Below are positions 1,560-58,521 of a DNA stretch of 64,000 bases, piece after piece; positions within the stretch are counted from its first letter, which is position 1; the number at the start of each line of letters is the position of its first letter. The notes below the pieces were generated by a model. The model was not told the DNA's origin. It was given only the letters and a program-made list of their open reading frames with translations, and did no database searches. The DNA is taken from NCBI RefSeq assembly GCF_013315695.1, contig NZ_CP054353.1; one strand, written 5' to 3'. This DNA is from Escherichia coli (GTDB lineage Bacteria; Pseudomonadota; Gammaproteobacteria; Enterobacterales; Enterobacteriaceae). Made by a program: the position numbers and the translations under genes.

Positions 1560-3754
1560 AATTTTTCCCCTTTCAACAGGATGCTTTGCGCATCACGAGG
1601 CTTGATGACATAGCACCAAACTTGCTTACGACCATCATGTTCTTCGATATAGACACCCTGAAGCTCCGGTGCAAAACCTGGCAGCAGGTTGATCCCTTCT
1701 TCCAGAGCGCTGAAGTAACGCAGAACAGCACCACCCCAGATTTCACCCGGAACAACACACAGCACACCCGGAGGATAAGGAAGCGCACCTTCTGCAGCGA
1801 TACGGCCTTCTGCATCCGGCAGACGAATCAGCTCCACTTCACCGCGTAAATAGGCGTGGTTGGCTTCTTGTGGATTCATGCTGACGCGTGGGAAGTGTTC
1901 CTTACGAAACATCTCTTTTTGCAGTTGTTTCACGTTGTGACGGGCATACAAATCATGCATTTCCTGACACAACTGACGCAGGGTATAACCGGTGTAGCGC
2001 TCTTCATGCTGTTTGTAGATGGAAGGCAGTACTTCTGATAATGGCGCGTCGGACTCAAGCAGTTTTTCGAAGCGTACCAGCAGAGCAGCAAGTTGCTGAA
2101 GTTTGGCCATATCTTCTGCCGGAGTCAGCAGAAAGAGGATGGAGTTAAGATCGCATTTTTCCGGCACTACGCCATTTTCGCGCAGGAAGTTAGCAAGAAT
2201 CGTCGCGGGTACACCGAACGCTTCATATTCACCGTTACGTGCATCAATACCTGGGGTTGTCAGCAACAGTTTGCACGGATCGACAAAGTATTGATTCTCT
2301 GCATAGCCTTCAAAAGAATGCCAGTGCTCACCTGGTACAAACTGGAAGAAGCGCAGATCAACCGCAATTTGCGCTGTTTCATACGACTGCCAGGGTTTAC
2401 CATCCACCAGTTCAGGTACGAATGGACGAATATGCTGACAGTTATCGAGGATCAGTTTGCGGGCATTAATGCCATTTACCACACAATCCATCCACATATT
2501 ACGACCGCTGACACCTTCATGCATTTTGGCGTTGATATCCAGTGCGGCAAACAGCGGATAGAACGGGCTGGTGGAGGCATGCATCATAAAGGCGTTGTTC
2601 ATGCGTTTGTGCGGTACATAACGCTGTTGCCCTTTGATATGGCAGTCTTTTTTATGGATTTGTGAAGTCTGGGAAAAACCAGCCTGCTGTTTATGCACAG
2701 ATTGCGTAACCAGAATACCCGGATCGTTCTCATTAAGATCCAGCAACAGTGGTGAACAGTCCGCCATCATCGGGATAAACTGCTCATAGCCGACCCATGC
2801 GGAGTCAAAGAGGATGTAGTCACACAGATGACCAATTTTATCCACCACCTGACGGGCGTTATAAATCGTACCGTCGTAAGTGCCTAGCTGAATAACGGCG
2901 AGGCGGAAAGGACGCGCCTCTTTTGCCCGCTGCGGTGCGACTTCTGTAATCAGTTCGCGCAGGTAATTTTCTTCGAAGCAGTGGGCATCAATACCACCGA
3001 TAAAGCCATACGGGTTGCGTGCGGTTTCCAGATAAACCGGTGTTGCACCAGCCTGTAGCAACGCTCCGTGGTGGTTAGACTTATGGTTATTACGGTCAAA
3101 CAGCACCAGATCACCCGGTGTCAGCAGGGCGTTTAAAACCACTTTGTTGGAAGATGAAGTGCCATTTAGAACGAAGTATGTTTTATCGGCATTAAACACT
3201 TTTGCCGCATGTTGCTGTGCAATGCATGGCGCGCCTTCGTGAATCAGCAGATCGCCCATTGCCACATCCGCGTTGCACAAGTCAGCACGGAACAGCGCCT
3301 CACCAAAGTATTCTACAAACTGATTCCCCGCCGGATGGCGACGGAAAAATTCGCCGCCCTGATGACCGGGGCAATCAAACGCGCTGTTACCCTGATTGAC
3401 ATAATCGACCAGTGCGCGGAAGAAGGGCGGGCGCAGTTGAGTTTCATAATGGCTGGCTGCGGTTTCTAACTGACGACCATAAAATTCTCGTCGCGATTCG
3501 CAATTCTCAAAGACACCCGAAATACGGGGCAAATACTCTGCGGGTACACGTTCTTGATTTTCAGTAGCAATAAATACCGGGATGCCATAACCCGTGGCAT
3601 CGATTTCATCGAGTTTTCCGCGTGTAACATCGTTGAGCGATAAAACTATTGCCGCCACATCGATATTACTGTTTTCATTAATATAGATACATTCTCGCTG
3701 CGTGGTAAAACAGTCCGGGCAAGAATCACTAACCGCAATTTTTAATTTTGACAT
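1556..3754 (-). CDS. speF: Inducible ornithine decarboxylase (PLP-dependent)
   Basis: ORF track gives 1556..3832; start moved to the internal ATG at 3754 (MSKLKIAVSDSCPDCF...), matching the SpeF N-terminus as recalled; fold-III decarboxylase family. Confidence 0.93.
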   Translation of the reverse strand: MSKLKIAVSDSCPDCFTTQRECIYINENSNIDVAAIVLSLNDVTRGKLDEIDATGYGIPVFIATENQERVPAEYLPRISGVFENCESRREFYGRQLETAASHYETQLRPPFFRALVDYVNQGNSAFDCPGHQGGEFFRRHPAGNQFVEYFGEALFRADLCNADVAMGDLLIHEGAPCIAQQHAAKVFNADKTYFVLNGTSSSNKVVLNALLTPGDLVLFDRNNHKSNHHGALLQAGATPVYLETARNPYGFIGGIDAHCFEENYLRELITEVAPQRAKEARPFRLAVIQLGTYDGTIYNARQVVDKIGHLCDYILFDSAWVGYEQFIPMMADCSPLLLDLNENDPGILVTQSVHKQQAGFSQTSQIHKKDCHIKGQQRYVPHKRMNNAFMMHASTSPFYPLFAALDINAKMHEGVSGRNMWMDCVVNGINARKLILDNCQHIRPFVPELVDGKPWQSYETAQIAVDLRFFQFVPGEHWHSFEGYAENQYFVDPCKLLLTTPGIDARNGEYEAFGVPATILANFLRENGVVPEKCDLNSILFLLTPAEDMAKLQQLAALLVRFEKLLESDAPLSEVLPSIYKQHEERYTGYTLRQLCQEMHDLYARHNVKQLQKEMFRKEHFPRVSMNPQEANHAYLRGEVELIRLPDAEGRIAAEGALPYPPGVLCVVPGEIWGGAVLRYFSALEEGINLLPGFAPELQGVYIEEHDGRKQVWCYVIKPRDAQSILLKGEKL

Positions 3755-4011
3755 TTTCCAACTCTTTATTTTTGGTAATAGCAGGTCCTCAATTTCTCGA
3801 ATGAGAAATCGATCGTGCCGGAAAAAAAGCAAAGTTACCCCGCTGATAAATTAATCAGAAGTTTGCTTTTTTCAGAATGCAGAAACCCTTATCAGTCCGG
3901 TGGCTGATAATACAAGGGTTAACAGAGAATGAGCACTGCGGAATACAGGCATATGCCTGTAATACAGAGAGTCAGGAAGACCTGTACGCTGAAGTGCCCT
4001 TAGTCGGTAGA

Positions 4012-4116
4012 CTAACGGGCATTGAAGAAGTGAAAGTCGAAGCTATTGCGATGAGCAAACTTCATAATATGAGTTGTCCGCCTTATATGGGGCATAGTGC
4101 GGCTGTTATTTTCCAT
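4012..4116 (-). CDS. speFL: speF leader arrest peptide (ornithine sensor)
   Basis: Minus-strand 34-codon ORF read by hand: MENNSRTMPHIRRTTHIMKFAHRNSFDFHFFNAR*, located in the speF 5' leader. It is below the ORF-track size cutoff. Confidence 0.85.
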   Translation of the reverse strand: MENNSRTMPHIRRTTHIMKFAHRNSFDFHFFNAR

Positions 4117-4349
4117 TTAATTTACCTTTCCTGATGTGAATGAAGGTGAAGGTATTCTATCCAGGAAATACGGTTGAACTGTGAAGGTGATCAATAAAAA
4201 ATGATCAATCTTAATTTATTTAATGATGAGCTTTTTACTCAGTAATATAAAATATTGAATTGTTATTTTTGTGTGTTGTTTAAGATAAAAAGCCGTATTT
4301 ATTATTACGGCTTTAATTAATAAAAGGCAGGATGTATTAAAATTAATAT

Positions 4350-5027
4350 TCAAAGCATAAACCGATACCCAATACCGGTTTCAGTAATGAAATGGCGGGG
4401 GCGGGCGGGATCTTGCTCCAGTTTTTGTCGCAGATGCCCCATATAAATACGCAAATAATGACTGTGTTCGACCGCGTTTGGTCCCCACACCTGATTGAGT
4501 AACTGGCGCTGGGTGAGCACTTTTCCGGCGTTGTTGAGCAGCACGGCCAGCAGGCGGAATTCAATCGGCGTGAGATGCACCTCTTCCTCACCCCGGTGAA
4601 TCACGCGGGCGGCTAAATCGACGGTCACATCGGAAAATTTCACCAGCGGATCGGGCGCGGTGGTGGCGGAGTGGCGGCGTAAAGCGACGCGCAGACGGGC
4701 CTGCAATTCGCCAATGCCAAACGGCTTACTCAGGTAATCATCCGCTCCGGCATCCAGCGCGGCGATTTTGTCGCTCTCTTCGCTGCGTGCGGAAAGCACA
4801 ATCACCGGCACCGCGCTCCACTGGCGCAGGTCGCGGATAAACTCAATCCCATCACCATCGGGCAGGCCGAGATCGAGAATAATCAAATCTGGCTTACGGG
4901 TTGCCGCTTCCAGCAAGCCGCGTTGCAGCGTTTCGGCCTCAAAGACGCGCATCCCGTCGCCCTCCAGCGCCGTGCGCAGAAAGCGACGAATAGCCTGTTC
5001 ATCTTCAACAATCAGAACGTTTGTCAC
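4350..5027 (-). CDS. kdpE: Response regulator of the Kdp two-component system (OmpR family)
   Basis: 225 aa; receiver domain (DLGLPDGDG) plus winged-helix C-terminus; 4-nt overlap with kdpD. Confidence 0.95.
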   Translation of the reverse strand: MTNVLIVEDEQAIRRFLRTALEGDGMRVFEAETLQRGLLEAATRKPDLIILDLGLPDGDGIEFIRDLRQWSAVPVIVLSARSEESDKIAALDAGADDYLSKPFGIGELQARLRVALRRHSATTAPDPLVKFSDVTVDLAARVIHRGEEEVHLTPIEFRLLAVLLNNAGKVLTQRQLLNQVWGPNAVEHSHYLRIYMGHLRQKLEQDPARPRHFITETGIGYRFML

Positions 5028-7708
5028 ATATCCTCATGAAATTCTTCAAGTTCAGGGGCAGTTTGCTGGGGAAGTGTAACACGAAAACAGGCACCACCTT
5101 CCGGTCGGTTGAATGCGGTAATGGTGCCGCCGTGTACATCCACAATCGCCCGACAAATTGCCAGCCCAAGCCCGACGCCCGGCACTGCCGACTCTTTATT
5201 CCCGCGGGCAAACTTATCGAATATCGTCTGCTCCTGGCCTGGCGGAAGACCGGGGCCGTTATCCCAGACATCCAGTTGTAGATTTTCGCCCTCAACGTGG
5301 GCATCGATACCAATTTCGGCCTGCGCACCCGCGTATTTCACCGCGTTCTCCAGCAGATTAATCAGCACCCGTTCAAAGAGTGGCCCATCAACGTGGATTA
5401 AGGTCAGCGGTTCTGGCAAAGACAGGTTGATGGGCGATGATAATCCCGGTTCCAGCATTTGCAGCGCGCTGCCGACCACTTCTTCCAGCGTTAACCACTC
5501 TTTCTTCAAATTAAAGCCGCCGGACTGAATTCGCGCCATATCCAGTAGATTATTCACCAGTCGGGTCGTGTTCAGCACATGCTGGCGAATCTCGCTGGCC
5601 TGGCGGGCGTGGGGCGATCCTTCGCTTGCCAGATCGAGCGTTAAGATTTCTGCCTGACCGAACAGCACCGTAAGCGGCGTGCGTAAATCATGCGAAAGTG
5701 CCGCCAGCAGGGCGTTGCGGATCTGTTCACGTTCGCTTGCCATCCGCGCCTGTTCTTCGCTGGCGGTCAGTGTCAGCCGCTCAAGCGCATTGGCGACTAA
5801 CAGCGTAAATGTCTCCAACAGGCGCTGTTGTTCCGGGATCATCAACTGACGCAGATTCCCCGGTTCTACCACCACCAGTCCGTAGGTTTTCTCGCCGCTT
5901 CTTAACGGCAGAATCTGGTACGGTACGCCGGGTAACGTGTCGGTGCCCGCGCCCGCAGGCTGACCTTTATCAAAACTCCACTGCGCGATGGCATCGTCCC
6001 ACGGCGTCATTCCTTGCGGATGTGTTAACGGCTGCAATTTACCGTTGTTATCGGGCAACAACACCTGACTGCGGGCATGAAACGTGGAGGCAATAAATTG
6101 TTCGCTGGTGGCGGCGATGTCCTGCGGACTGCGGCCCACAGCCAGAGCTTTGGACATTTCATATAAGTGCCGTGTGCGTTGTTCGCGGTAACGGGCTACC
6201 CGCGCCTGATAACGCACGCCAGCAGTAAGGTTCCCGATCACCAGCCCGACGGTTAACATCACCGCGAAGGTCAGCAGATATTGCACATCAGAGACGGCGA
6301 GCGTGCCGCGTGGGGTGATAAAAAAGAGATCGAAACTCACCACATTAATGACGGTGGCAACCACTGAAGGCCAGCGTCCATAAAATAGCGCCACCACCAC
6401 CACGCCAAGCAGATACAGCATCACCAGGTTGGCGGCATCAAACGCCATCAGCCACTGCATGGCAATTAAGGTGATAACGGCGCATAACGCGGCGGCAACC
6501 ACGCATCCCTGAATCTGTACCCGCCACTTGTCTTTAAAAGAGCGGCTATCCGGCGCGTTGTTAAGTGTGCGGGCGGGGGGGTCATCAAGTGCGACCAGCA
6601 CCTGATCGAGTTCGGGGGCGATACGCGCCAGTCGGTCAGCAAACGTTTCCCGACGCCACCAGCGGCGCGAGGCCGGGCGACCGAGAATAATCTTGCCGAG
6701 ATTATGTTCACGGGCATAACGCACTACTGCTTTTTCTTCCGCTGGATCAGAAAGTGTTGCCGTCTCCGCGCCCAGCTCCTGCGCCAGACGTAAGGCGCTG
6801 AGAATTGCCCGACGTTTTTTCTCCGGTAAGCGATGCAGGGCAGGGGTTTCAACATACACCGCGTGCCAGACACTGCCCAGGCGCGAGGCCAACCGCGCCG
6901 CCGCGCGGACCAGTTTCTCACTGCCGGTGTTATGCCCGATGCATAAAAGGATCGCGTCGCGTGTGTGCCAGACTTTCTCTTCGCCAGGATGCCCCCGCCA
7001 GGCGCGCATTTGCTCATCTACGCGATCGGCAGTACGGCGCAGTGCCAGTTCGCGCAGGGCGATCAGATTGCCTTTGCGAAAAAAATGTTCAATGGCGCGC
7101 TCCGCCTGCCCGGCAATATAGACTTTGCCTTCTTTCAGCCGCTGGCGCAGATCGTCCGGGGGCAAGTCCACCAGTACTACGTCGTCGGCGGCATCAAAAA
7201 AAGGATCGGGCACGGTCTCCCGTACCTGAATTCCGGTGACGCCGCTGACCACATCATTCAGACTTTCCAGATGCTGAACGTTAACGGTAGTGAAAACATC
7301 AATGCCAGCTTCCAGCAGCTCCTCAATGTCCTGCCAGCGTTTGGGATGACGAGAACCTGGCGCATTACTGTGCGCCAGTTCGTCCATTAAGATCAGTGCC
7401 GGACGGCGGGCGAGGGCGGCATCGAGATCAAACTCGCTGATATGCCGCCCACGGTACGCCTGGCGTTTGGGCGGCAGAACAGCCAGCCCTTCCAGCATTG
7501 CGGCGGTATCTTTCCGCCCGTGGGTTTCTACCACGCCAACCACAATATCCAGCCCTTGCGCCCGCAGTCGCTGGGCTTCCGCCAGCATCGCCCAGGTCTT
7601 CCCGACGCCTGCGCAGGCACCGAAGAAAACTTTCAGCTTCCCCCGATGCGGCGCGGCAGTTTGTTCCAGCAGACGATCGGGGTCGGGACGTAAGGGTTCG
7701 TTATTCAT
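5024..7708 (-). CDS. kdpD: Sensor histidine kinase KdpD
   Basis: Track ORF 5024..7741; start moved to [17 protein letters not shown] (ATG at 7708), giving 894 aa; Walker-like N-terminal KdpD domain, USP domain, TM segments and HisKA/HATPase C-terminus. Confidence 0.95.
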
Positions 7709-19561: not shown

Positions 19562-20353
19562 ATGCCTGAAGGCCCGGAGATCCGCCGTGCAGCGGATAAC
19601 CTGGAGGCGGCGATCAAAGGCAAACCACTAACTGATGTCTGGTTTGCCTTCCCGCAGTTAAAATCTTATCAATCACAACTTATCGGTCAACACGTTACCC
19701 ATGTGGAAACGCGTGGCAAGGCGTTGTTAACTCATTTTTCCAACGAATTAACGCTCTACAGCCATAATCAGCTTTACGGCGTCTGGCGCGTGGTTGATAC
19801 CGGCGAAGAGCCGCAGACCACGCGAGTATTGCGGGTAAAACTGCAAACGGTTGACAAAACCATTCTGCTTTATAGCGCCTCGGATATTGAGATGTTGACC
19901 CCGGAACAACTGACCACGCATCCGTTTTTACAACGCGTTGGCCCCGATGTGCTGGATCCGAAACTGACGCCGGAGGTGGCGAAAGAACGGTTATTGTCGC
20001 CGCGCTTTCGTAACCGTCAGTTTGCTGGATTACTACTCGATCAGGCGTTTCTGGCTGGGCTTGGCAATTATTTGCGGGTGGAGATCCTCTGGCAGGTTGG
20101 GTTGACTGGAAATCATAAAGCGAAAGATCTCAATGCGGCGCAACTGGATGCACTCGCACACGCGTTACTGGAGATTCCTCGATTTTCCTACGCTACGCGG
20201 GGGCGGGTGGATGAGAATAAGCATCATGGGGCGCTGTTTCGCTTTAAGGTTTTTCATCGTGATGGCGAACTGTGCGAACGCTGTGGCGGCATCATTGAGA
20301 AAACCACGCTGTCATCTCGCCCGTTTTACTGGTGCCCTGGCTGTCAGCACTAG
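19562..20353 (+). CDS. nei: Endonuclease VIII (Fpg/Nei DNA glycosylase)
   Basis: 263 aa; N-terminal MPEGPEI and C-terminal zinc finger CxxC...CxxC. Confidence 0.94.
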
Positions 20354-21396
20354 GCCGTACGTTTCGGCGCATAGGTTGAAATAAACCGCGCAATGGCAGG
20401 TCCCGTCAGCAAAATACTGAACAGGCGCAGGGTTTGCATCGCCATAATGAGCGCCATATCGGCATTGCTCCCTGCGGCGATAACCGCCACGGTATCAAGC
20501 CCGCCGGGGCTGGTGGCGAGGTAGGCAGTCATAAAATCAATGTGCATAAACCGGGTCAGTCCCCACGCCATACCCGCACAAATAGCCAGCAGAGCAAAAA
20601 TCGACAGCAGGATTTGTGGCAGTGGGCGCAATGCCCGCAGTAATATTTGTTTATCGAAACCAAGACCAATCCGCCAGCCAATTGCCATATATGCTATCGC
20701 CAGCAGCCATTCCGGGAGTTCAATCGTGATGAGCTGACCAGACTGGAGCACTGCGCCCGCCAGCATCGGGATGAGCATCGTGCCGGAAGGAAGACGTAGC
20801 AAGCATCCCGCCGTACCGGCAACGACCGCGAGCATAATCGTAAGCAGTAGATTAATGCTCACTGGCGGGAACCAGACGATCTGCTGGTTAACCGCTTCAG
20901 CGTTATCACCCAGCATCATGCGGGTGACCAGAACAGCGGCCCCCGCGACGAACAGCACTCGCAGATATTGCATAAACGCCACCAGGCGAATATCTGCGCC
21001 GTAATCTTGCGCCATAGCGACCATTGCCGCCGCGCCGCCAGGAGAAGAACCCCAGGCACCGGTATTTCCAGGCAGTGAGCTATAGCGCACCAATAACCAA
21101 CCCACGATGGCGCTGGAAAGCAGCGTCACCAGTAAAATGGCTAACACTATCGGCCAGTTCACCGCTAGCGTGGTCAGGATCGAACCGGTCAGGTTTTGCG
21201 CAATCATGCAGCCAAGAATGGCCTGCGCGGCGAGAAAAGCGGAGCGGGGGAGTTGCAGGGTAACCCCGCGCATACTGAAGATGATCCCGGCGAGCATCGG
21301 CCCAAGTAATAGCGCCGCCGGGAGATGTAATCCGAGGAAGCCAATAGAAAGTAGAAGTGAGAGCACACATAACATTCCCCACTGCAAAACTGGCAT
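20350..21396 (-). CDS. abrB: AbrB-family membrane protein (putative regulator/transporter)
   Basis: Track ORF 20350..21441; start chosen at [14 protein letters not shown] (ATG 21396, AGGA-type RBS upstream), 348 aa. Start codon choice is uncertain. Confidence 0.75.
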
Positions 21397-21547
21397 CCTT
21401 CGCTTCCTCATTATTTTCTCTTTGGTGTATCGATACAGCATAAAGAAAGCTGGGTCTGGAAAAAATAACGGTAATCAAGGAAAAGGGGAAAATCAGCAAT
21501 AATCTGAATACGTTGCCCTTTCCGGCTGAAAAGGGCGTCGTGTTAAA

Positions 21548-21922
21548 TCAGTTATAGTTAATCTTAAAAAGTACCACTGTATCGAAGGGACCCGCCGCGA
21601 TGAGAGTGCCAGGTGTGGACGATAATTCAGCCGTATAGGTTTTTTCGTAGATCAGCATATCACTGGTGAAATCGGCGTATTCAGCATATTTATTGAATGT
21701 ATAAGGCGAGGCGTTTTCATCCAGCAAACGTAGCTTCAGACTATTACCAATCAACAATGCTTTATCTTCTTCAACCAACGTTTCTTCGGTATAAAAGGAG
21801 GAACTGACTTTAAATCCGTCGGTGCATTGGTCATTTTGTGATTTTGTCGTGTTAATACTGAATGTTTTCGACATTGTGTGGCGGCGAATATCCAGCAGAT
21901 TAAATTTACCAAAATCAATCAC
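21548..21922 (-). CDS. Hypothetical protein (orphan ORF where K-12 carries the ybgOPQD fimbrial operon)
   Basis: 124 aa ORF, no signal peptide or recognisable domain; may be real or a remnant of the deleted fimbrial locus. Confidence 0.3.
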   Translation of the reverse strand: MIDFGKFNLLDIRRHTMSKTFSINTTKSQNDQCTDGFKVSSSFYTEETLVEEDKALLIGNSLKLRLLDENASPYTFNKYAEYADFTSDMLIYEKTYTAELSSTPGTLIAAGPFDTVVLFKINYN

Positions 21923-22068
21923 CTGTGTTTCCGGTGAAATATTTTTTCACCTTATTAATGGGTATTTGCATCTGGTTTAATTTTTACAATTTTTTATGTT
22001 CAGCCATATAAAAAGAACCCGCTCTATTAAAGGCGGGTCCGGAAAGTGAACGGCTTAGCAATCAACCA

Positions 22069-23352
22069 TTAACGCTTGATATCGCTTTTAAAGTCGCGTT
22101 TTTCATATCCTGTATACAGCTGACGCGGACGGGCAATCTTCATACCGTCACTGTGCATTTCGCTCCAGTGGGCGATCCAGCCAACGGTACGCGCCATCGC
22201 GAAGATCACGGTGAACATAGAAGACGGAATACCCATCGCTTTCAGGATGATACCAGAGTAGAAATCGACGTTCGGGTAGAGTTTCTTCTCGATAAAGTAC
22301 GGGTCGTTCAGCGCGATGTTTTCCAGCTCCATAGCCACTTCCAGCAGGTCATCTTTGGTCCCCAGCTCTTTCAGCACTTCATGGCAGGTTTCACGCATTA
22401 CGGTGGCGCGCGGGTCGTAATTTTTGTACACGCGGTGCCCGAAGCCCATCAGGCGGAAAGAGTCATTTTTGTCTTTCGCACGACGAACAAATTCCGGAAT
22501 GTGTTTAACGGAGCTGATTTCTTCCAGCATTTTCAGCGCCGCTTCGTTAGCACCACCGTGCGCAGGTCCCCACAGTGAAGCAATACCTGCTGCGATACAG
22601 GCAAACGGGTTCGCCCCCGAAGAGCCAGCGGTACGCACGGTGGAGGTAGAGGCGTTCTGTTCATGGTCAGCGTGCAGGATCAGAATACGGTCCATAGCAC
22701 GTTCCAGAATCGGATTAACTTCATACGGTTCGCACGGCGTGGAGAACATCATATTCAGGAAGTTACCGGCATAGGAGAGATCGTTGCGCGGGTAAACGAA
22801 TGGCTGACCAATGGAATACTTGTAACACATCGCGGCCATGGTCGGCATTTTCGACAGCAGGCGGAACGCGGCAATTTCACGATGACGAGGATTGTTAACA
22901 TCCAGCGAGTCGTGGTAGAACGCCGCCAGCGCGCCGGTAATACCACACATGACTGCCATTGGATGCGAGTCGCGACGGAAAGCATGGAACAGACGGGTAA
23001 TCTGCTCGTGGATCATGGTATGACGGGTCACCGTAGTTTTAAATTCGTCATACTGTTCCTGAGTTGGTTTTTCACCATTCAGCAGGATGTAACAAACTTC
23101 CAGGTAGTTAGAATCGGTCGCCAGCTGATCGATCGGGAAACCGCGGTGCAGCAAAATACCTTCATCACCATCAATAAAAGTAATTTTAGATTCGCAGGAT
23201 GCGGTTGAAGTGAAGCCTGGGTCAAAGGTGAACACACCTTTTGAACCGAGAGTACGGATATCAATAACATCTTGACCCAGCGTGCCTTTCAGCACATCCA
23301 GTTCAACAGCTGTGTCCCCGTTGAGGGTGAGTTTTGCTTTTGTATCAGCCAT
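22069..23352 (-). CDS. gltA: Citrate synthase
   Basis: 427 aa [36 protein letters not shown]...; unmistakable type II citrate synthase. Confidence 0.97.
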
Positions 23353-24060
23353 TTAAGGTCTCCTTAGCGCCTTATTGCGTAAGACTGCCGGAACTTAAAT
23401 TTGCCTTCGCACATCAACCTGGCTTTACCCGTTTGTTATTTGGCTCGCCGCTCTGTGAAAGAGGGGAAAACCTGGGTACAGAGCTCTGGGCGCTTGCAGG
23501 TAAAGGATCCATTGATGACGAATAAATGGCGAATCAAGTACTTAGCAATCCGAATTATTAAACTTGTCTACCACTAATAACTGTCCCGAATGAATTGGTC
23601 AATACTTCCACACTGTTACATAAGTTAATCTTAGGTGAAATACCGACTTCATAACTTTTACGCATTATATGCTTTTCCTGGTAATGTTTGTAACAACTTT
23701 GTTGAACGATTGTCAAATTAGATGATTAAAAATTAAATAAATGTTGTTATCGTGACCTGGATCACTGTTCAGGATAAAACCCGACAAACTATATGTAGGT
23801 TAATTGTAATGATTTTGTGAACGGCCTATACTGCCGCCAGGTCTCCGGAACACCCTGCAATCCCGAGCCACCCAGCGTTGTAACGTGTCGTTTTCGCATC
23901 TGGAAGCAGTGTTTTGCATGACGCGCAGTTATAGAAAGGACGCTGTCTGACCCGCAAGCAGACCGGAGGAAGGAAATCCCGACGTCTCCTGGTAACAGAA
24001 AGTTAACCTCTGTGCCCGTAGTCCCCAGGGAATAATAAGAACAGCATGTGGGCGTTATTC
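23353..24060. promoter_or_regulatory. Divergent gltA / sdhCDAB-sucABCD promoter-regulatory region
   Basis: 708-bp AT-rich non-coding interval between divergent gltA and sdhC; individual operator sites not resolved. Confidence 0.6.
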
Positions 24061-33857: not shown

Positions 33858-35051
33858 ATGAAGAAAATTGTTCTGCCGGTTGCTCTGGCCCTGATGGGTA
33901 TAAATGCGGACGTTTATGCGGCCGATGTAAAGATCGATATTTTAAGTGCAACAGTGAAAGATAAACGCATTGAGGGGGCATCGGTGACGCTGCAACGCAA
34001 TGGCGCACAATCTGTTTCTGGCACCACAAATGCCTCGGGCAGCATTAATCTGGGCTCTTCCTTTGCCGATGATCAAGATGCTTTGTTAATCGTCAAAAAA
34101 GAGGGCTATTCTAATCTGGTGGTCAAATGCCCGTGTGCGGGCATGACTTATGCGATTAGTCCGGTAATGACTAGTCTGGATGGCATGCGTGTCGTATTGA
34201 GCTGGGGCGAAAAGCCTTTTGATCTTGATTCGCATTTGATCTTCCCTGGCGGACATATTTATTTTGATAGTAAAGAGGGGACTGATGCCAATCTGGATGT
34301 TGATGATACGGATAGCTATGGACCAGAAACTGTCACTATCAGCAAAAAGCATTTTGGCGAAAGTTACATCTATGCCGTGCAGGACTATAGCAATAAAGGG
34401 TTGCCCAACAGTAATTATCTCTCTGCCAGTAAGGCAAAAGTGTTTGTTTATGTAGGGGGCTCCCTGGTGCGTAGTTATAGTGTCCCTGCTGGAAAACGAG
34501 GGAACATCTGGACCGTGTTTAAACTCAATCCAAACGGCGAGTTTGAAGATATCAACTCTGTTACCACCGCCAATTTTAACGACACCACATTAGGCGTCAG
34601 GGATTTAGCCACTGTGATAATGCCTGCGACGGGTTCTTCAACTCCGGCTTCACCTGCGATGCAAAACAGTGGATATACTCAACTGGCAAGAAAATATAAT
34701 CGTGAAGGCGAAGCTGTTTACAAAACCGGTCAACTTGAGCAAGCCATTCAACTCTTCCAACAGGCAACAGAATTAGACGGCAATTACGGTCAGGCATTTA
34801 GTAACCTGGGTCTGGCTTATCAGAAAAATGGCAACATCGCGGAAGCGATTTGGGCAAATCGTAAAGCGATCTCGTTAGCCAGTGGAGCAAATGCGGCGAC
34901 AACGCGCGCTAACTCCTATTATAACATTGCCAAAATTTATGAAACTGCAGGACAGAACGCTGATGCATTGCAGCATTATCAACTCGCTTATGCGGAAAAA
35001 AATAAGCCCTCTTATGAAGAGGCCATCGCACGGGTAAAAGCGAAAATGTAG
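33858..35051 (+). CDS. Secreted protein with YfaP-like (DUF2135-type) central domain and C-terminal TPR repeats
   Basis: 397 aa; Sec signal peptide MKKIVLPVALALMGINADVYAA; motif LSWGEKPFDLDSHL...DANLDVDDTDSYGPETVTI as in YfaP-family proteins; C-terminal TPR-like repeats (AIQLFQQATELDGNYGQAFSNLGLAYQKNGNIAEAI...). First gene of the island. Confidence 0.7.
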   Translation: MKKIVLPVALALMGINADVYAADVKIDILSATVKDKRIEGASVTLQRNGAQSVSGTTNASGSINLGSSFADDQDALLIVKKEGYSNLVVKCPCAGMTYAISPVMTSLDGMRVVLSWGEKPFDLDSHLIFPGGHIYFDSKEGTDANLDVDDTDSYGPETVTISKKHFGESYIYAVQDYSNKGLPNSNYLSASKAKVFVYVGGSLVRSYSVPAGKRGNIWTVFKLNPNGEFEDINSVTTANFNDTTLGVRDLATVIMPATGSSTPASPAMQNSGYTQLARKYNREGEAVYKTGQLEQAIQLFQQATELDGNYGQAFSNLGLAYQKNGNIAEAIWANRKAISLASGANAATTRANSYYNIAKIYETAGQNADALQHYQLAYAEKNKPSYEEAIARVKAKM

Positions 35052-35428
35052 CGGTTAGCAAACAGGAGGCTATGTGGTGTTAGCCTCCTTACCCCCAGGC
35101 CAGTGGGAATATAGTAATCATCGTTTTTAACATTCAACGTCCAGATTCTGCTTGAGCGTAAAAACAAGTCTTTAGATATTTTATAAATGATGAAGGGCTG
35201 GAAAGTGGTTGATGTCACCGACTCACGATCGTTATCGCCAGCAAAGCTTTTTTGCCATTGCACCAGACGCACCTTCAACCATTTTGGCGACGAATCAACT
35301 GCTACCGCCACCAGGCTTGTTTGCCATTTTCCCGTACCTAATTCGTCGCTTGCCGCACTGTTGGCTGTAATCAATGGCCCAATGCCCAACCAGATACTTC
35401 TATATCCGATTGGGTTTTGTTAATTGCG

Positions 35429-36025
35429 TTACCCCTTAAACGTTAACCTCGGTCGAAATCTGACCGCTGGCTGAATTAATCCGGCTTCTTGTTGGGCTTC
35501 GATAACCGGACCAATATCTTTATAAGCAGCTGGCGCTTCTTCAATACGCCGTTCTTCGCGCAATGTGACGCATTGCCACGGCAACGTTGACTCTGCAGTC
35601 GCGCGTGAGCGCATGGCCTGCCGACGCTGGCTGCGTCCTGCTCCGTGACTGCAAGACCACAGCCACTCCGGGTTGCCGCAACCAACCGCAAGCCAGGAAT
35701 AATCACCCATGGAACCGGGGATTAACGCCAGATCGCCCGCGCGTGCCGGTGTTGTGGCCACCACAGCGCCAACGGGGACGCCATTGCCGGGATGAAAATC
35801 TGGCGTCGCGCACGTCTGGCGCACATAACCTGGGTGGTCTGGTAGCTTCACTTCTGCAAAATCAAGCAGTTGTGTTACTGCTTTTTCTTCCAGCGGCAGT
35901 TCGTCCGGCAGCAGTACGCGGGCACTGGCACCTGATGGACGAGATAATGAAACAATATTGTTGGCGCGGGAAAGTTGGATCCCTTTGCGCAGAAAGGCTT
36001 TATCAAGCCTTGAAAGATGATGCAT
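35429..36025 (-). CDS. Shortened RtcB-like protein (RNA-ligase family motifs, central region absent)
   Basis: 198 aa; N-terminal PDFHPGNGVPVGAV resembles the RtcB PDxHxG metal-binding motif, and the C-terminus (IPGSMG...CSHGAGR...AYKDI...FKG) resembles the RtcB C-terminus, but the motifs are about 50 aa apart instead of about 300. Confidence 0.55.
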   Translation of the reverse strand: MHHLSRLDKAFLRKGIQLSRANNIVSLSRPSGASARVLLPDELPLEEKAVTQLLDFAEVKLPDHPGYVRQTCATPDFHPGNGVPVGAVVATTPARAGDLALIPGSMGDYSWLAVGCGNPEWLWSCSHGAGRSQRRQAMRSRATAESTLPWQCVTLREERRIEEAPAAYKDIGPVIEAQQEAGLIQPAVRFRPRLTFKG

Positions 36026-36614
36026 AACGCTGTCCTGAAATATAGACGTTAAACAACCCCCTGTATTGCGAGGGTAATTTTGTCTTTCCGGTCAGCAGCC
36101 AGCAAAAGGGAAAGAAAACGCGCGTAGTGTATGTGGCGATAGCAAGTTTTACAAGTGGTAAATCTGGCTTATTGTTAAAGAGGAATTATCTTTTGTGAAG
36201 TCTTTTAAGGCCATGACTCATTCAATTTAACCGGACATAGATAATATATAACATAGGGTATATAAATTTATCATTGTATACTTGTCATAATTCAAGTTGC
36301 ATGTGCTGCATCGATGTTCGCTCACCCAGGTCACTTACTTATGTAAGTTTCTGGAAATTCATTATTTGTTCCCTTCCTGCAACTTGACTTATTTAGAGTA
36401 TATTCATGTATATGAATAATATTCTTGCAATAATAGCTTTAAAGTATTGCATGCGGATAACTGAGGTGAAATTCCTGTTTTAGGATTATTGTCACTTTAT
36501 TTTCCTGGTTAGACATATAGCTGACTGGTTTGTTTATTTGAATTATGATATTCATTAGTGCTACTGTTTTTTATAAAATAATTTTTGAATTGTTATTTTT
36601 TCACGGACGGCATT

Positions 36615-37520
36615 ATGCGAGGAAAAATACCTAAAACGGAACTGCTGGTGACTTTTGAGGTCGTCGCACGTCATGAAAGTTATACCAGAGCGGCAGAGGA
36701 GTTAGCGTTAACCCAAAGTGCAGTATTCAGACAAGTAAGTGCGCTGGAGGAATTTTTACATACTCCGTTATTTTCACACTCTAAAAAACGCATTTTTCTT
36801 AATGATGCAGGGAAGTATTACCTGGGGATAGTAAAAGAAACATTAAATAAGCTGGAACGCGATACCAATACCATTATGACCTGGCAGCCTACGGTTCAGG
36901 TTATTGAACTTGCCGTTAATCCTACTTTTAGTACCCACTGGTTAATCCCAAATTTACATGAATTCACAAAGTTACATCCCGATATTATTGTTAATATTCA
37001 TTCTTTAGCTAATAACGGCGACTTTCTTAATCGGGAGTACGATGCTGTCATTATGCGCGAAAATTTTTGCGCGCCCTGGGCGGAAGTAGAGTATCTCTTT
37101 GAAGAGGAGATTTTGCCGGTATGCAGCGGCAGTTTGCTTGCAATGTCCGATCAAAAACTGTCAGTGGCAGAACTGCTTACTGAGTTACCACTTCTGCATC
37201 AAAGCACCCGTATTACTGGCTGGGAAGAGTGGTTTGCTTTATCTGGCGTTAGCAGTCCGCTGGTCAATAACGGACCACGTTTCGATTTGCTTTCAATGCT
37301 GATTGCCGCCGTGCGCTCTAATCTCGGCGTGGCGCTGTTACCACGGTTCGCTATTCAACATGATTTGGATAGTGGCGATATGGTGATTCCCTGTGATGTG
37401 CCTATTCGTACCGGTAATCGTTTTATTATGACGTGGCAGGAAGAGAAGTCTGACTCACCGCACTTGCAGCAATTTCGTGAATGGTTGCTGGCGAAATCGG
37501 TCGTACCGCAGGAGATGTAA
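36615..37520 (+). CDS. LysR-family transcriptional regulator
   Basis: Start chosen at MRGKIPKTELLVTFEVVARHESYTRAAEELALTQSAVFRQVSALEE (N-terminal HTH) followed by a substrate-binding domain; divergent from the RtcB-like ORF and convergent with the cobA-like gene. Confidence 0.8.
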   Translation: MRGKIPKTELLVTFEVVARHESYTRAAEELALTQSAVFRQVSALEEFLHTPLFSHSKKRIFLNDAGKYYLGIVKETLNKLERDTNTIMTWQPTVQVIELAVNPTFSTHWLIPNLHEFTKLHPDIIVNIHSLANNGDFLNREYDAVIMRENFCAPWAEVEYLFEEEILPVCSGSLLAMSDQKLSVAELLTELPLLHQSTRITGWEEWFALSGVSSPLVNNGPRFDLLSMLIAAVRSNLGVALLPRFAIQHDLDSGDMVIPCDVPIRTGNRFIMTWQEEKSDSPHLQQFREWLLAKSVVPQEM

Positions 37521-37553
37521 AACCTGCGCCTGGCGGGATGCCAGGCGCAGTTA

Positions 37554-38156
37554 TTACCAGTCGATACCCGGCTGGGCCTGAATGCCGTTATCAAAAGCAT
37601 GTTTGACGGGGCGGATTTCGCTTACCGTATCCGCCATTTTTAATATCTGACTGTGGCAACCGCGTCCGGTGACAATGACACTTTGTTGTGCCGGGCGGTT
37701 TTGCAGAGAAGCGATCACTTCTTCGGTGTCCAGATAATGGTAAGCCAGCATATAGGTCAGCTCATCAAGCACCACTAAGTCGTAACGCTTGTCAGCCAGC
37801 ATCCGTTTGCTTTCCGACCAGACCTCTTTCGCCGCGTCGATATCCGCTTGCCGGTTCTGTGTCTCCCAGGTAAAACCGGTTCCCATAATATGAAACTCAA
37901 CCCCCAGCGGCTGGAGAAGGTTGTATTCGCCGTTGTCCCATTGCCCCTTGATGTACTGCGCAACCCCCACCGTTTTGCCATGACCCACCGCGCGCGTCAC
38001 AGTACCAAACGCGGCAGTGGATTTCCCTTTGCCGTTGCCGGTGAAAACAATCAAGATCCCTTTTTTCTCTATCGCCGCCGCGACGCGCGTATCGACCTGT
38101 TCCTTCAATTTCTGCTGGCGCTGCACATGCCGTTCAGTTGAAATTCGCGCTTCCAT
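37554..38156 (-). CDS. Cob(I)alamin adenosyltransferase (BtuR/CobA family paralog)
   Basis: 200 aa; P-loop GNGKGKSTAA and overall strong similarity to BtuR as recalled (...VFTGNGKGK.TAAFG...RAVGHGK.VGV.Q.IKG.W.NGE...); probably supplies adenosylcobalamin for glutamate mutase. Confidence 0.85.
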   Translation of the reverse strand: MEARISTERHVQRQQKLKEQVDTRVAAAIEKKGILIVFTGNGKGKSTAAFGTVTRAVGHGKTVGVAQYIKGQWDNGEYNLLQPLGVEFHIMGTGFTWETQNRQADIDAAKEVWSESKRMLADKRYDLVVLDELTYMLAYHYLDTEEVIASLQNRPAQQSVIVTGRGCHSQILKMADTVSEIRPVKHAFDNGIQAQPGIDW

Positions 38157-38165
38157 TCATTTTCC

Positions 38166-39818
38166 TTAATGTCCCGCAGGGCAACTGGCGCAGCGGTGTT
38201 TCTGCTCAAACTGACTAAAGAAATTATTGCCTTTATCATCTACCAGGATGAATGCGGGTAAATTTTCCACTTCCATCATCCACACCGCTTCCATACCCAG
38301 CTCCGGGTATTCCAGGCAACGCAGACTTTTGACATATTCTTGCGCCAGTAACGCAGCTGCACCGCCAATACTTCCCAGATTGAAGCCGCCATGTTTGTGA
38401 CAGGCATCGGTGACCTGCTGGCTGCGGTTACCTTTCGATAACATCACCAGACTGCCGCCAGCCGCCTGGAAGGTATCGACATAACCGTCCATTCGACCGC
38501 CCGTGGTTGGACCCAGTGAACCGCAGGCCATGTTCTCCGGTGTTTTCGCCGGGCCAGCGTAATAGACAATATGATGCTTCAGGTAATCCGGCATCGGTTC
38601 GCCGCTATCCAGCCGCGCTTTTATTTTGGCGTGGGCGATATCGCGCGCCACTACGATGGGACCACTTAACGACACGCGGGTGCCTACCGGTAATCTGGCG
38701 AGATCCTGCATCACGTCACGCAACGGACGATTTAGATCCAGCTGTACATGTTGCGCGTGATTTTCTTCCCGCAGTGAGGCTGGAATATATTGCCCCGGAT
38801 TGTGTTCGAGTTTTTCCAGCCAGATACCGTGCTTGTTAATTTTTGCTTTGATATTGCGATCCGCAGAACAGGAGAGCGTCATAGCTATCGGGCAAGAGCC
38901 ACCGTGACGCGGCAGACGAATGACGCGAATATCATGAGCGAAATATTTACCCCCAAATTGCGCACCAATACCAAATTGCTGACTGGCCTCGAGCAATACT
39001 TTTTCCAGCTCAATATCACGGAATGCTTGTCCTTGCTCGTTTCCGCTGGTGGGCAAATTGTCGTAATATTTCGTTGAGGCCAGCTTGGCAACTTTTAAGG
39101 TTTGATCGGCTGAAAGCCCTCCGACGACAAAGGCGATGTGGTAAGGCGGGCAGGCAGCGGTGCCCAGCGATTTCATTTTTTCGATTAAAAATGCGGTCAG
39201 TTTTTCTGGTTGCAATAGGGATTGGGTTTCCTGATAAAGCGCGGCTTTATTGGCAGAGCCGCCCCCTTTATTAATACAGAGAAAATGGTACTCATCACCA
39301 GCGACGGCGCTGATATCAATCTGCGCCGGGAGATTGGTTTGCGTATTGACTTCGGTAAACATATCCAGTGGCGCATTTTGTGAAAAGCGCAGATTATTTT
39401 CCTGAAAAGTGGTGTAAATGCCTTTGCTTAAGGCTTCAGCGTCGTTACCTCCGGTCCATATCTGTTGCCCTTTACTGGCAACAATAGTTGCGGTGCCGGT
39501 ATCCTGACAGTTGGGTAATACCCCTTTTGCTGAGACTTCAGCATTACGTAATAACTGCAACGCAACGTATTTATCATTACTACTGGCGTGCGGATCGTTA
39601 AGAATGCTGGCGACCTGTTGCAAATGAGCGGAACGTAAGAAAAAAGAGGCTTCATAAAATGCCTGCCGGGCAAGCAGCGTTAATGCTTCAGGAGCGATTT
39701 TTATCACTTCTTCGCCGTCTAATTCCGTTACTGTAATATGTTGATCGCTAATTAATGTATATTCTGTACCGTCTTTATTTTGTAGAAACGGTTCTTGCCA
39801 GATAAATGGTTTGGACAT
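38166..39818 (-). CDS. fumD: Class I (Fe-S) fumarate hydratase paralog; mesaconase/fumarase
   Basis: 550 aa, collinear with FumA/FumB ([11 protein letters not shown]...[12 protein letters not shown]...[14 protein letters not shown]...[13 protein letters not shown]...). I recall a mesaconase named FumD from an E. coli O157:H7 glutamate-mutase cluster; symbol given on that basis. Confidence 0.88.
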
Positions 39819-39925
39819 ATTTCACTTTTCACCTTAAACGTTAGTTTTACTTAATTGCCGTCTAACTTCATGATCCGGCTTATAAAAATGCGTAGTCATT
39901 GGCTTCTGATTGCTTAAGATCCCCC

Positions 39926-41206
39926 TCAGGGCAGAGCAACGTTCGATTCATTGGGTTTTAATGCTTTACCCCGACAGCCCTCGCCGAAATGTTCGCCTTC
40001 CCACCGACTCACCATCGCAGCGCCCATTGCGTTGCTCATGACGTTTGTCGCGGAACGCCCCATATCAAGGAACGGATCAACGCCCATCAGCAAGATCAGC
40101 CCCGCTTCCGGAATATTGAACTGGTTGAGCGTGGCGGCGATAACCACCATTGAGGCGCGTGGTACGCCAGCCATTCCTTTCGAGGTCAACATCAGGATCA
40201 ACAGCATGGTGATTTGCTCACCGATGGATAAATGGATATTGCAGGCCTGGGCGATGAAAACTGTGGCGAAGGAGCAGTAGGCCATTGATCCAACGAGATT
40301 AAATGAGTAGCCAATGGGTAAGACAAAGCTGGCAATTTTGGGGGAAACGCCAAATTGCTCCAGTTTTTCAAGCGTTCCCGGAAAAGCCGCTTCAGAACTG
40401 GATGTGGTAAATGCCAGCAGGGCGGGTTCCGAAAGGGCACGGGTCAGGCGTCTGATGCAGGGGCCGACATAAACGATGGCCAGACCGATAAGCAGCACCC
40501 AAAGTAACAACATGGTGAAATAAAATTCACCCATAAAGATCCCGGCGCTCACCATAACTGCCAGTCCTCGTTCAGCAATCAATGCTGAAATAGCGGCGAA
40601 TACGGTCAGGGGAGCGAAGAGCATGACGTAGCCAGTGAGCTTTAACATGGCATGTGCCAGCGAATCTAAGGCGTGAACGATGGCGCTGCCTTTCTCACCA
40701 ATCGCCGTCAGGCTACAGCCGAGGAAAATTGAGAACACCACGATTTGCAAAATTTCATTGTGCGCCATGGCATCGACAATGCTGGTGGGGAAAGCATGCG
40801 AAATAAATACTTTTAGTGTAAAGGGTTCTGACGCGACCACTCCGGTGGTTTCGGCACCGTGTGCAACAAAATTAATTCCTGTGCCTGGCATGAAGAAATT
40901 TACCGTTATCAAGCCTAAGGCAATTGACAGCAATGAGGCGCAAATAAATAAAAAGAGTGTTTTAGAAAAAATACGACCAAGGGCTTTGGCATCTCCCATT
41001 TTAGCTATACCTACCACCAGGGTAGAGACCACTAACGGAGCGATAATCATTTTTATCAGTCGTAAGAAAATCGTCGTGAATATCGATATTTCTTGCGCAT
41101 AGAGTTTTGCGGTTTCCGGTGAAGCAGTGTTATTGAGCACTACGCCGATAATCATTCCAAGTACCAGCGCCAAAAGAATCATCGTGGTTAAACTTATTTT
41201 CTTCAT
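39926..41206 (-). CDS. Dicarboxylate/amino acid:cation symporter (DAACS; GltP/DctA-like)
   Basis: Start at MKKISLTTMILLALVLG (ATG 41206, GGAGG RBS); polytopic membrane protein with DAACS-type conserved segments; substrate (glutamate, mesaconate or citramalate) is not decidable from sequence. Confidence 0.85.
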   Translation of the reverse strand: MKKISLTTMILLALVLGMIIGVVLNNTASPETAKLYAQEISIFTTIFLRLIKMIIAPLVVSTLVVGIAKMGDAKALGRIFSKTLFLFICASLLSIALGLITVNFFMPGTGINFVAHGAETTGVVASEPFTLKVFISHAFPTSIVDAMAHNEILQIVVFSIFLGCSLTAIGEKGSAIVHALDSLAHAMLKLTGYVMLFAPLTVFAAISALIAERGLAVMVSAGIFMGEFYFTMLLLWVLLIGLAIVYVGPCIRRLTRALSEPALLAFTTSSSEAAFPGTLEKLEQFGVSPKIASFVLPIGYSFNLVGSMAYCSFATVFIAQACNIHLSIGEQITMLLILMLTSKGMAGVPRASMVVIAATLNQFNIPEAGLILLMGVDPFLDMGRSATNVMSNAMGAAMVSRWEGEHFGEGCRGKALKPNESNVALP

Positions 41207-41366
41207 TTTTTCCTCCATCAGGTGCACGGCGATAAATCAGAATCAGGAGAAGTAGATGCCTGAATAGAGATTCAGGCATCTACCTGCTATTACAACCTTA
41301 CAAATAGCTGAAGTGTTGAACTGCAATAAGTGACGGGATGTCAGTTGGCTAAAAGTATTCGGATTT

Positions 41367-41684
41367 TTACAAATCGAAACTCATATTTAATAAAGGTGCA
41401 TGTTGCTGTGCACCATAGACATCATTGTCACCTACATTCCCGGAGATAATATCTCGTGGCATGACGATTTTTACTGCGTTAGAAGGATCAAACCAGACAA
41501 TACGGTGAATAAAGTCAGGTTCAACATGATATAAGCGCGCAATCAGTTCTGGGGTTAATTGCCCTGATGATTTAACTCGCTCATAGTTTTCTTTCGTTTT
41601 AAATAAAATATCTAAAACCAGTTCGTAAGGTCCGGCATTTTTCGAACGAATGACTTGCGCCAGTGAGACAATTGACTGTTTCAT
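41367..41684 (-). CDS. Small conserved protein, DUF4387-like partner of the AtuA-like protein
   Basis: 105 aa; start overlaps the stop of the upstream DUF1446 ORF by 4 nt (translational coupling); family assignment from memory. Confidence 0.55.
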   Translation of the reverse strand: MKQSIVSLAQVIRSKNAGPYELVLDILFKTKENYERVKSSGQLTPELIARLYHVEPDFIHRIVWFDPSNAVKIVMPRDIISGNVGDNDVYGAQQHAPLLNMSFDL

Positions 41685-43051
41685 GCCTGAACTCCTTCTG
41701 GCGTCACCTGTTCAATATGGAAATCAAAACGCAGAGCGTCGTTGGCTTCAATCAGGTGATATATGGAAAATTCGTATACCGGCCCGCCCTGGATATCAGA
41801 AGGGGAGAACGGGAACGCCAGATTGCCTGCGGTAGCGATGCGGTTTTCATAGCCGTAGTGCAGCATGGTAGAGCGCACCAGCGAGCAAACGCTATTGGCA
41901 ATTTCCTGGGTCGGTGCAACTACATCAAGGACAATCCCCAGCTCATGCCCGGCAGTTTGCATCGGTTCATGGTCGCCCATCACCCCGTTTTTGCCGTACA
42001 GGTGGAAATTGATGCGAATGCTGTCATCGTCGAGCGACAGGTTACGCCAAACGCTGGTTTTGACTTCATCGATGATTTTATCGATCCCGGCGATCATGAT
42101 CGGGTCGCGCGTTCCTGCGATGGTCAGACAGCGGAAGCCCACCCGTCGCGCACCTTCCAGTTTCAGGGCATACGGCGTTTCTTCATGCTTAGAACCGCTG
42201 ACGTACACTTCGCCGTCATTGACCGCTTTAAATGTGCAGCCTTTCAGGTTCAACACGCCGCCAGGTCCAGGCAGGAAGTAGGGATCGGATTTCTCATACA
42301 GTGTGTGTGCAGCCGCTGACGTTTCGGTAAATTTACGCTTCGGATTAAATGTCTTCAGCGTAAAGCCGTTGTCATCAATGATGCCCATCGCACAGTCAGA
42401 GCCTGAGCCGGGCGTTGCGGCGATTGCCGCGCATTCAAGGATTTTCCCACAATGCAGCGCCAGACCTTCATCAAAGCCTTGCATGATCGGGAGCGCAGCA
42501 AAGCAGGCCGGGTCGTAAGCGCGCCCGCCCAGCACCACTTGCGCGCCTTCTTTCAGCGCCCGCTGGAAGGGTTCGATGCCCATTTGCGCGACGATATACG
42601 TACTTTCGTCAATCGCGTCGTGGGTTAACGGCGGGACAAAATCCAGCGCCGTGATTTTGCCGTTATCCAGCGCCTGGTGGACGATGGCTTTGTCAACGTC
42701 TGCCGGGATCAACGCCATCGAGAACGAGAGGTGCTCTTCCTGGGCAATCTCATGAATTATTTCTCGGCACCACTCCAGGTGTGGTGCGGCACCAGAACCG
42801 CCAGCTGTTCCGATCACCACCGGTATATTATTTTGCACGCCTGCGGTGATCATATAGCGCAGATCGCGCTTGACCCCTGCGCGATCGGTAAACGGTTTGC
42901 CTGCCCCGAGGTAGTGGGGGCCTGGATCGGAAGAGCCTGCATCAACGGCGATCAGATCGGGCGATTCTGCCATCGCTTTGCGGAAGCTCTCTTCCGGGAA
43001 TCCATACCCGAGGATTGCCGTTGGCGATAAGACTTTAAAAGAACGAGCCAT
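41681..43051 (-). CDS. AtuA-like protein (DUF1446 family), function unknown
   Basis: 456 aa; N-terminal G-Y-G-F...D-A-G-S region resembling the DUF1446 signature; starts 3 nt after the methylaspartase stop. Confidence 0.65.
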   Translation of the reverse strand: MARSFKVLSPTAILGYGFPEESFRKAMAESPDLIAVDAGSSDPGPHYLGAGKPFTDRAGVKRDLRYMITAGVQNNIPVVIGTAGGSGAAPHLEWCREIIHEIAQEEHLSFSMALIPADVDKAIVHQALDNGKITALDFVPPLTHDAIDESTYIVAQMGIEPFQRALKEGAQVVLGGRAYDPACFAALPIMQGFDEGLALHCGKILECAAIAATPGSGSDCAMGIIDDNGFTLKTFNPKRKFTETSAAAHTLYEKSDPYFLPGPGGVLNLKGCTFKAVNDGEVYVSGSKHEETPYALKLEGARRVGFRCLTIAGTRDPIMIAGIDKIIDEVKTSVWRNLSLDDDSIRINFHLYGKNGVMGDHEPMQTAGHELGIVLDVVAPTQEIANSVCSLVRSTMLHYGYENRIATAGNLAFPFSPSDIQGGPVYEFSIYHLIEANDALRFDFHIEQVTPEGVQA

Positions 43052-43054
43052 TTG

Positions 43055-45741: not shown

Positions 45742-45759
45742 TGATTGCAGCCTTAATTG

Positions 45760-47148: not shown

Positions 47149-47597
47149 CAGATTGCCTCTTCAAGAATACGAGTATCAACGTCATGACGTTGGTTGATAT
47201 CGTGTGCCATCAGCTGACAAACATCTTCTAAGTCATGACTTGGGGCAAAGACGCGATCAAATCCCATCTCTTTGAATTTGGTTTCCACGTCAGCGAAGTC
47301 ATGTTTTCCGACCACCAGGTTACCGCCCACATAGAGCAGGATGTCCCCCAGTCCACGCTCGATGCAGCGTTCGCGCATGCCCAGACAGTCGATATCGCCA
47401 TGCCCATAGATAGAGGAGACGACAATCGCGTCAGCGCCAGTTTCAATGGCCGCATCAATATATTCGTCCTGGCTGACCATTACGCCCAGATTAATGACTC
47501 TGAAGCCATGGTTGCTAAAAACGCGGTCCAGAACTTTATTGCCTACTGCATGGCAGTCCGCGCCAATAACGCCAATCACAAGTGTTGCTTTCTTCAT
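47148..47597 (-). CDS. Glutamate mutase sigma (S, B12-binding) subunit
   Basis: Start at ATG 47597 ([27 protein letters not shown]...), 149 aa; B12-binding DxHxxG motif; AAGGA RBS. Track ORF with the longer N-terminus is rejected. Confidence 0.9.
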
Positions 47598-48143
47598 GGG
47601 TAATCCTTTGTAAGACAGAGAGTAAAATAAGTTACACACGTCGTATTTATGGCCGTTCATAACGGCACAGGTTTAATATCACAGGAGTGTCTTTATCTGA
47701 CCGTAATGTTGCAATTGATCTATTTTCAAAATGTCTTTCGGGAAATGATTGTTTAAAGTATGTTGTTAAATTCTCATGTTAATTCAGTGTGTTATGTCAA
47801 CTAATGTCATGAATGTTAAATTTTTAAAATTAACTTGATTTGGTGTATTGAGGTATTTGTGATCTACTTCTAATTTGCATTTTAGTGATATGGGTTTAGC
47901 CATGAGTAAATGCATTTCATAAAATTTAAGTCGAATTTCACTGCAATTCATCTCTGCTTAATGTAAAAATAATGTTGAAAATAACAAATGGTTAATGATT
48001 CATGCGAATTATGACCTTAGTTAGCTCTTTTGATTTTTCGTAAAAAAGAGAGGTACATGAAGGTGCTACCAGTATGAGTAACGTTAATCAAAGGTTTTAT
48101 TACGTCTGGCAATAACGCAGGCCATTTTCGCGACTGGGTGGAT

Positions 48144-57966: not shown

Positions 57967-58512
<546 letters not shown>

Positions 58513-58521
58513 GAGAATTGC

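Follow-up and report, generated by a model that had tools for sequence, protein, structure and literature searches.

The interval between abrB and gltA in the 64,000-nucleotide stretch of Escherichia coli DNA that was analysed (the window) is very probably the scar of one clean, illegitimate deletion of about 4.75 kb that removed the ybgOPQD fimbrial operon and left a non-functional ybgO pseudogene. The homology of this remnant to ybgO, the position of the breakpoints, the identity of the junction among carriers and the distribution of the scar across sequenced genomes are described below. The strain is predicted to be unable to make Ybg fimbriae. The genes on either side should be unaffected, because the gltA terminator and abrB itself are untouched.

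The abrB-gltA interval and its ybgO remnant

On its left the interval is bounded by abrB (ybgN), which is placed on the minus strand at 20350-21396 when the PGAP coordinates of strains ECCNB12-2 and MS 21-1 are transferred to the window. This start (21396) was carried over through matches of 100%, which cover 21300-22200 for ECCNB12-2 and 20350-22068 for MS 21-1; the longest abrB ORF in the ORF list uses an upstream ATG at 21441 and spans 20350-21441 on the minus strand. On the right, gltA, encoding citrate synthase, is intact on the same strand (22069-23352, according to both the ORF list and PGAP), and its product carries the same accession as in K-12 (WP_000785834.1). The gap measures 627 bp with the abrB start used in the original prediction or 672 bp with the PGAP start, in agreement with the roughly 630 bp and the single ORF reported there: the only ORF of at least 60 aa that lies wholly inside the gap is one of 124 aa with a GTG start (21548-21922, minus strand). 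The order in the K-12 record (DH10B) is abrB-ybgO-ybgP-ybgQ-ybgD-gltA, and the proposed absence of these four genes from between abrB and gltA in the window is borne out.

The 124-aa ORF had been described as an orphan, a view that does not hold, as it is part of a truncated ybgO pseudogene and is covered by a PGAP annotation to that effect. In the alignment to K-12 YbgO the remnant frame (21551-21943, minus strand) is identical at 124 of 130 residues (95%), without gaps and with E = 1e-90. The remnant that contains the ORF extends over 21548-21940 on the minus strand, as delimited by the YbgO alignment, Pfam and PGAP; it comprises 130 codons and a stop that correspond to YbgO residues 224-353 (the pilin domain), and over its 393 bp it follows the ybgO 3' end collinearly at 92-94% nucleotide identity. 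The ORF is thus similar to a fimbrial gene, a homology that is based on the YbgO alignment and not on the Pfam score. The Pfam Fimbrial domain (PF00419) spans residues 218-353 of full-length YbgO, and the 124-aa ORF alone scores 17.9 bits (E = 0.0039), under the gathering threshold of 25.6; even the full-length K-12 protein reaches no more than 25.3 bits, which places this subfamily at the edge of the model. The ORF lacks a signal peptide, as originally noted, because the N-terminal 223 residues of ybgO are gone: it begins inside the C-terminal pilin domain, and a full-length ybgO of 353 aa is not present in the window, where residues 1-223, including the signal peptide and the N-terminal domain, have been deleted.

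The original prediction had offered two alternatives, a deletion scar or an ancestral empty site, and only the first of these stands. The second would have the operon never present in the lineage and the 124-aa ORF an unrelated orphan, and the sub-threshold Pfam score of the ORF alone is the sole point in its favour. Against it stand the 95% amino acid identity and the collinear nucleotide identity over all 393 bp to the ybgO 3' end, a sharp breakpoint in mid-codon sequence, and the continuation, to the right of that breakpoint, of the ybgD-gltA spacer found in operon-bearing strains, so that an empty site can be given virtually no credence. The remnant has kept the position of the orthologue, beside abrB, convergent with no gene and on the strand of gltA, with its stop 151 bp from the abrB start, as is also the case in K-12. 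Just 3' of this stop a hairpin has been retained (GCCCUUUUC-AGCC-GGAAAGGGC; 21515-21536, minus strand) with a folding energy of -17.9 kcal/mol and z = -4.3. It probably represents the structure at the 3' end of what was the ybg operon, and a role as terminator may be supposed, although a strong T-run is missing.

Several observations identify the remnant as a pseudogene within a deletion scar. Its truncation lies at a sharp breakpoint that is shared among carriers of the scar, and in one of these, GN02323, the remnant contains an internal stop codon, the frame being open in nine of ten sampled remnants. The PGAP annotation reads "type 1 fimbrial protein; incomplete; missing N-terminus", with pseudogene status, in all of the carriers looked at, i.e., ECCNB12-2, UM146, GN02323, E7-1N7, MS 21-1, SMS-3-5, CFSAN061771, RM14723, and 2014C-3075. 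A non-coding RNA in the interval was considered and rejected, as Rfam gave no match at E <= 1 over 21300-22200, and so was a promoter driving the remnant, as a consensus scan of the same 21300-22200 found no sigma-70-like site. Reading of the sequence upstream of the GTG (TTTCACCGGAAACACAG) disclosed no convincing Shine-Dalgarno sequence.

The truncated ORF might nonetheless have been kept in a functional role, either as a small protein that consists of a pilin-domain fragment in the cytoplasm or at the level of a regulatory RNA, considering that its frame is open in nine of the ten sampled carriers despite a divergence of about 5% and that pN/pS is below 1. By our estimate, however, an open frame after 19 substitutions is expected by chance in about 40% of cases and does not, at this divergence, speak for constraint, and exchange with intact alleles by recombination accounts for the low pN/pS (see below). 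With neither signal peptide nor chaperone nor usher, with no promoter-like site, convincing Shine-Dalgarno sequence or Rfam match in the interval, with a location downstream of the gltA terminator, and with the internal stop in GN02323, a retained function appears extremely unlikely. The remnant is therefore regarded as non-functional, since it lacks a signal peptide, chaperone, usher and detected promoter and lies past the gltA terminator, and it would not be expected to be made or assembled as a protein.

Breakpoints of the deletion

The window aligns with K-12 over 20301-21940 (93.6%) and 21976-23400 (97.3%), which leaves 35 bp (21941-21975) unmatched in K-12. Filler DNA at this position was considered and rejected, because many strains that have the operon, S43 among them, match 21941-22068 at 97.7% identity within their ybgD-gltA spacer; it is K-12 itself that is divergent over the 35 bp, and there is no filler in the window. 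In the alignment with S43 the left part stops at 21941 and the right part begins at 21941. The deletion junction is accordingly placed at 21940-21941, where GGTGAAAT is joined to ATTTTTTCACC with 1 bp of microhomology (A), and 4,747 bp of S43 are absent (reference for the deletion size: strain S43, locus L003, positions 2254-7000).

The segment removed comprises ybgO codons 1-223, ybgP, ybgQ, ybgD, and the 260 bp upstream of ybgD. A single illegitimate deletion would account for the loss of all of these, i.e., of the 5' two-thirds of ybgO, the gene for the terminal fimbrial subunit or adhesin, together with the chaperone (ybgP), usher (ybgQ) and subunit (ybgD) genes and the adjacent 260 bp, and would have brought ybgO codon 224 up against the final 128 bp of the spacer between ybgD and gltA. 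These gltA-proximal 128 bp are retained at 21941-22068 on the minus strand (97.7% identical to operon-bearing strains), and they include the intrinsic terminator of gltA (about 22010-22040, minus strand), which consists of a hairpin followed by UUUUU with a folding energy of -23.7 kcal/mol and z = -2.9. With respect to the organization of a fimbrial operon, no adjacent chaperone or usher gene (ybgP, ybgQ) was found, gltA being reached 128 bp past the junction, and neither was a major subunit gene with an upstream promoter, as ybgD and its 260 bp of upstream sequence are gone and the promoter scan was negative.

Neither IS sequence nor terminal repeats were found within the scar. The sole repeat is a perfect 7-bp inverted repeat with a 5-nt loop (GGTGAAA-TATTT-TTTCACC, 21933-21951) that is made by the junction, with one arm derived from ybgO and the other from the spacer upstream of ybgD. 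Excision of an IS element or transposon was rejected, as the arms of this repeat lie outside the deleted segment, which is the wrong geometry. A stem of at least 7 bp was encountered in 0.3% of simulated random junctions in the region, a figure of uncertain significance for an observation made post hoc. We know of no mechanism that uses an inverted repeat created by the junction itself, and its occurrence may be due to chance.

Distribution and history of the scar

Among 5,426 complete E. coli genomes, the scar, aligned across its junction, is present in 557 (10.3%). In about 4,190 genomes the ybgO 3' end runs on into more ybgO, as calculated from the 4,750 genomes covering the homologous 242 bp minus the 557 carriers. 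A further 661 genomes (12.2%) have an unrelated 8-kb sugar-acid/TRAP island between abrB and gltA and no ybgO remnant, and a handful show other states at this site (e.g., NR2550). Carriers of the scar include SMS-3-5, which we take to belong to phylogroup F, as well as UM146 and the type strain DSM 30083 = ATCC 11775, which we both take to be B2. The junction is identical, base for base, in all ten carriers that were sampled.

The remnants share one haplotype in one part and fall into two types in another, as determined by a mosaic comparison of window positions 21549-21924 with loci L004, L006, L010, L015, and L016. Over the 3'-proximal 150 bp (21549-21698) all scar carriers examined have a common haplotype, set apart by about 11% from each of the K-12-like (A/B1-type) intact alleles compared; the O157 ybgO allele diverges by about 22% when all 393 bp are taken together. 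The junction-proximal 200 bp occur as a B2-type, present in about 506 genomes (e.g., UM146), and an F-type, present in about 50 genomes in all, to which the window and SMS-3-5 belong. Between the two types there are 19 differences in 393 sites, with a pN/pS of 0.19, and five of them fall in the 45 bp next to the junction. In the segment 21725-21924 only 4 sites separate the F-type from the intact allele of strain 2013C-3181, and no intact ybgO closer than about 94% to either remnant type was found among the 5,426 genomes.

The identical junction and the common haplotype over 21549-21698 argue for common descent of the scar. The deletion allele would then be an old one that is identical by descent among its carriers, which make up roughly 10% of the sequenced E. 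coli and include B2 and F strains. Pure neutral drift after one deletion was rejected as the source of the differences between F- and B2-type remnants, in view of the pN/pS of 0.19 and their patchy distribution; being mostly synonymous, these differences cannot have accrued in a pseudogene. Recombination with an intact ybgO allele is the preferred source. In one lineage such an exchange would later have overwritten the junction-proximal 200 bp of the remnant, with the tract halting at the junction, where homology ends. Given the five differences so close to the junction, a single origin requires that the later recombination tract ended within 16 bp of it.

Alternatively, the identical deletion may have arisen at least twice, on F-type and on B2-type ybgO, steered by local sequence or structure such as the 7-bp inverted repeat. 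This would fit an identical junction on haplotypes that differ at five sites so close to it, a pN/pS that indicates that the differences arose in functional genes, and the rarity of a junction-spanning stem of this length in the simulations. However, the direct microhomology is only 1 bp, the inverted repeat was noticed post hoc, and to our knowledge no mechanism deletes the DNA between the arms of an inverted repeat and yet keeps both arms. Moreover, the 21549-21698 haplotype is common to all carriers and was seen in no intact allele examined, and the 5,426 genomes contain no intact ybgO nearer than the above 94% to either type. Recurrence is consequently considered very unlikely. A related reading is that an allele conferring loss of Ybg spread horizontally among ExPEC lineages (B2, F, and relatives) because it is advantageous, or that the deletion recurred at a structure-directed hotspot. 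It is suggested by the presence of an identical junction on two diverged haplotypes that bear the mark of purifying selection, and we judge it unlikely. A single deletion followed by recombination with an intact allele is preferred here over both.

With respect to the sequence adjoining the remnant, abrB (20350-21396) is unusually divergent and differs between E. coli lineages at 43-60 positions per 1,047 bp (4-6%), as compared to 1.3-2% in the neighbouring gltA, and the abrB end of the interval is a divergence or recombination hotspot.

Other states of the locus and comparison with known strains

The 8-kb island was inspected in strain S4 (NZ_CP107140; L007:8096-16126), where it occupies the abrB-gltA site and ends only 46 bp from the gltA stop. 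It encodes a GntR regulator, an RraA-family protein, a Zn-dependent alcohol dehydrogenase, an SDR oxidoreductase, two UxaA-family hydrolase subunits, and a TRAP transporter. The abrB genes of S4 and UM146 differ at 15 of 1,047 positions, and the island and scar states are therefore both found on closely related abrB alleles. In NR2550 (NZ_AP040168; L008:6417-9215) a deletion bounded by IS1 runs from speF to gltA. The IS1 element directly links what is left of speF, which is annotated as a pseudogene of an Orn/Lys/Arg family decarboxylase, to the gltA 3' end; the whole stretch from kdp to abrB and ybg has been lost, and the C-terminus of GltA is changed, with a CDS of 1,296 bp versus 1,284. The O157:H7 strain ATCC 43890 (L017:8154-10613) has kept all four ybg genes, but a stop codon interrupts the gene for the usher, ybgQ, which is annotated as a pseudogene, and the strain represents an independent route to loss of Ybg fimbriae.

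Over positions 350-64000 the window is 99.96% identical to MS 21-1, a human colon isolate. Elsewhere in the window, an island of about 16 kb (about 33,890-49,600) lies between sucD and cydA, where K-12 has mngR-mngA-mngB. Its genes encode methylaspartate mutase (glmS/glmL/glmE), methylaspartate ammonia-lyase, a class I fumarate hydratase, a dicarboxylate symporter, CobO, AtuA/DUF4387 proteins, and a TPR protein; in addition there are a short gene of 198 aa that is annotated as RtcB and a LysR pseudogene interrupted by a stop codon. The whole has the look of an island for glutamate fermentation via the mesaconate pathway. The region 58413-60289 has an ordinary, K-12-like content, with the cpoB/ybgF RNA thermometer (RF02782), a seven-gene tRNA-Lys/tRNA-Val array, and an RtT element. 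In the tRNA array the alignment to MS 21-1 breaks at 60317-60420, which possibly reflects a difference in repeat units or an alignment artefact.

The ybg scar is an ordinary feature, already present in public annotation as a pseudogene and in line with published surveys. Ybg is a cryptic chaperone-usher system whose frequent disruption has been reported before. Wurpel et al. 2013 (PMC3559732) placed it among the core-associated fimbrial loci, with a fixed position, and described it as "not intact in many strains" and as present for the most part in strains that are commensal or diarrhoeagenic, and its absence from ExPEC-type lineages is likewise known from that survey. The predicted inability to make Ybg fimbriae would extend to about one in ten of the E. 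coli genomes sequenced, some of them from well-known B2 and F strains. The locus provides a tidy example of gene loss that raises no new biological question, and its exact breakpoints could be used to mark lineages, as could the three-state polymorphism of operon, scar, and 8-kb catabolic island.

In comparison with K-12, the position between abrB and gltA is common to both, and the remnant in the window is the orthologous ybgO 3' end. Besides 130 of the 353 ybgO codons, the window retains the gltA-proximal part of the ybgD-gltA intergenic region, whereas ybgP, ybgQ, ybgD, and the region upstream of ybgD, all present in K-12, have been lost. The pseudogenes annotated by PGAP as ECSMS35_RS03615 (SMS-3-5), UM146_RS14530, V9Z47_RS18840 (MS 21-1), and others are the identical feature with the identical junction; the MS 21-1 sequence is 100% identical to that of the window, and the SMS-3-5 remnant is identical to the remnant in the window. 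In the genomes with the 8-kb island, in NR2550, and in O157:H7 ATCC 43890, the Ybg operon has likewise been abolished or replaced, in each case by a route that differs from the scar in the window.
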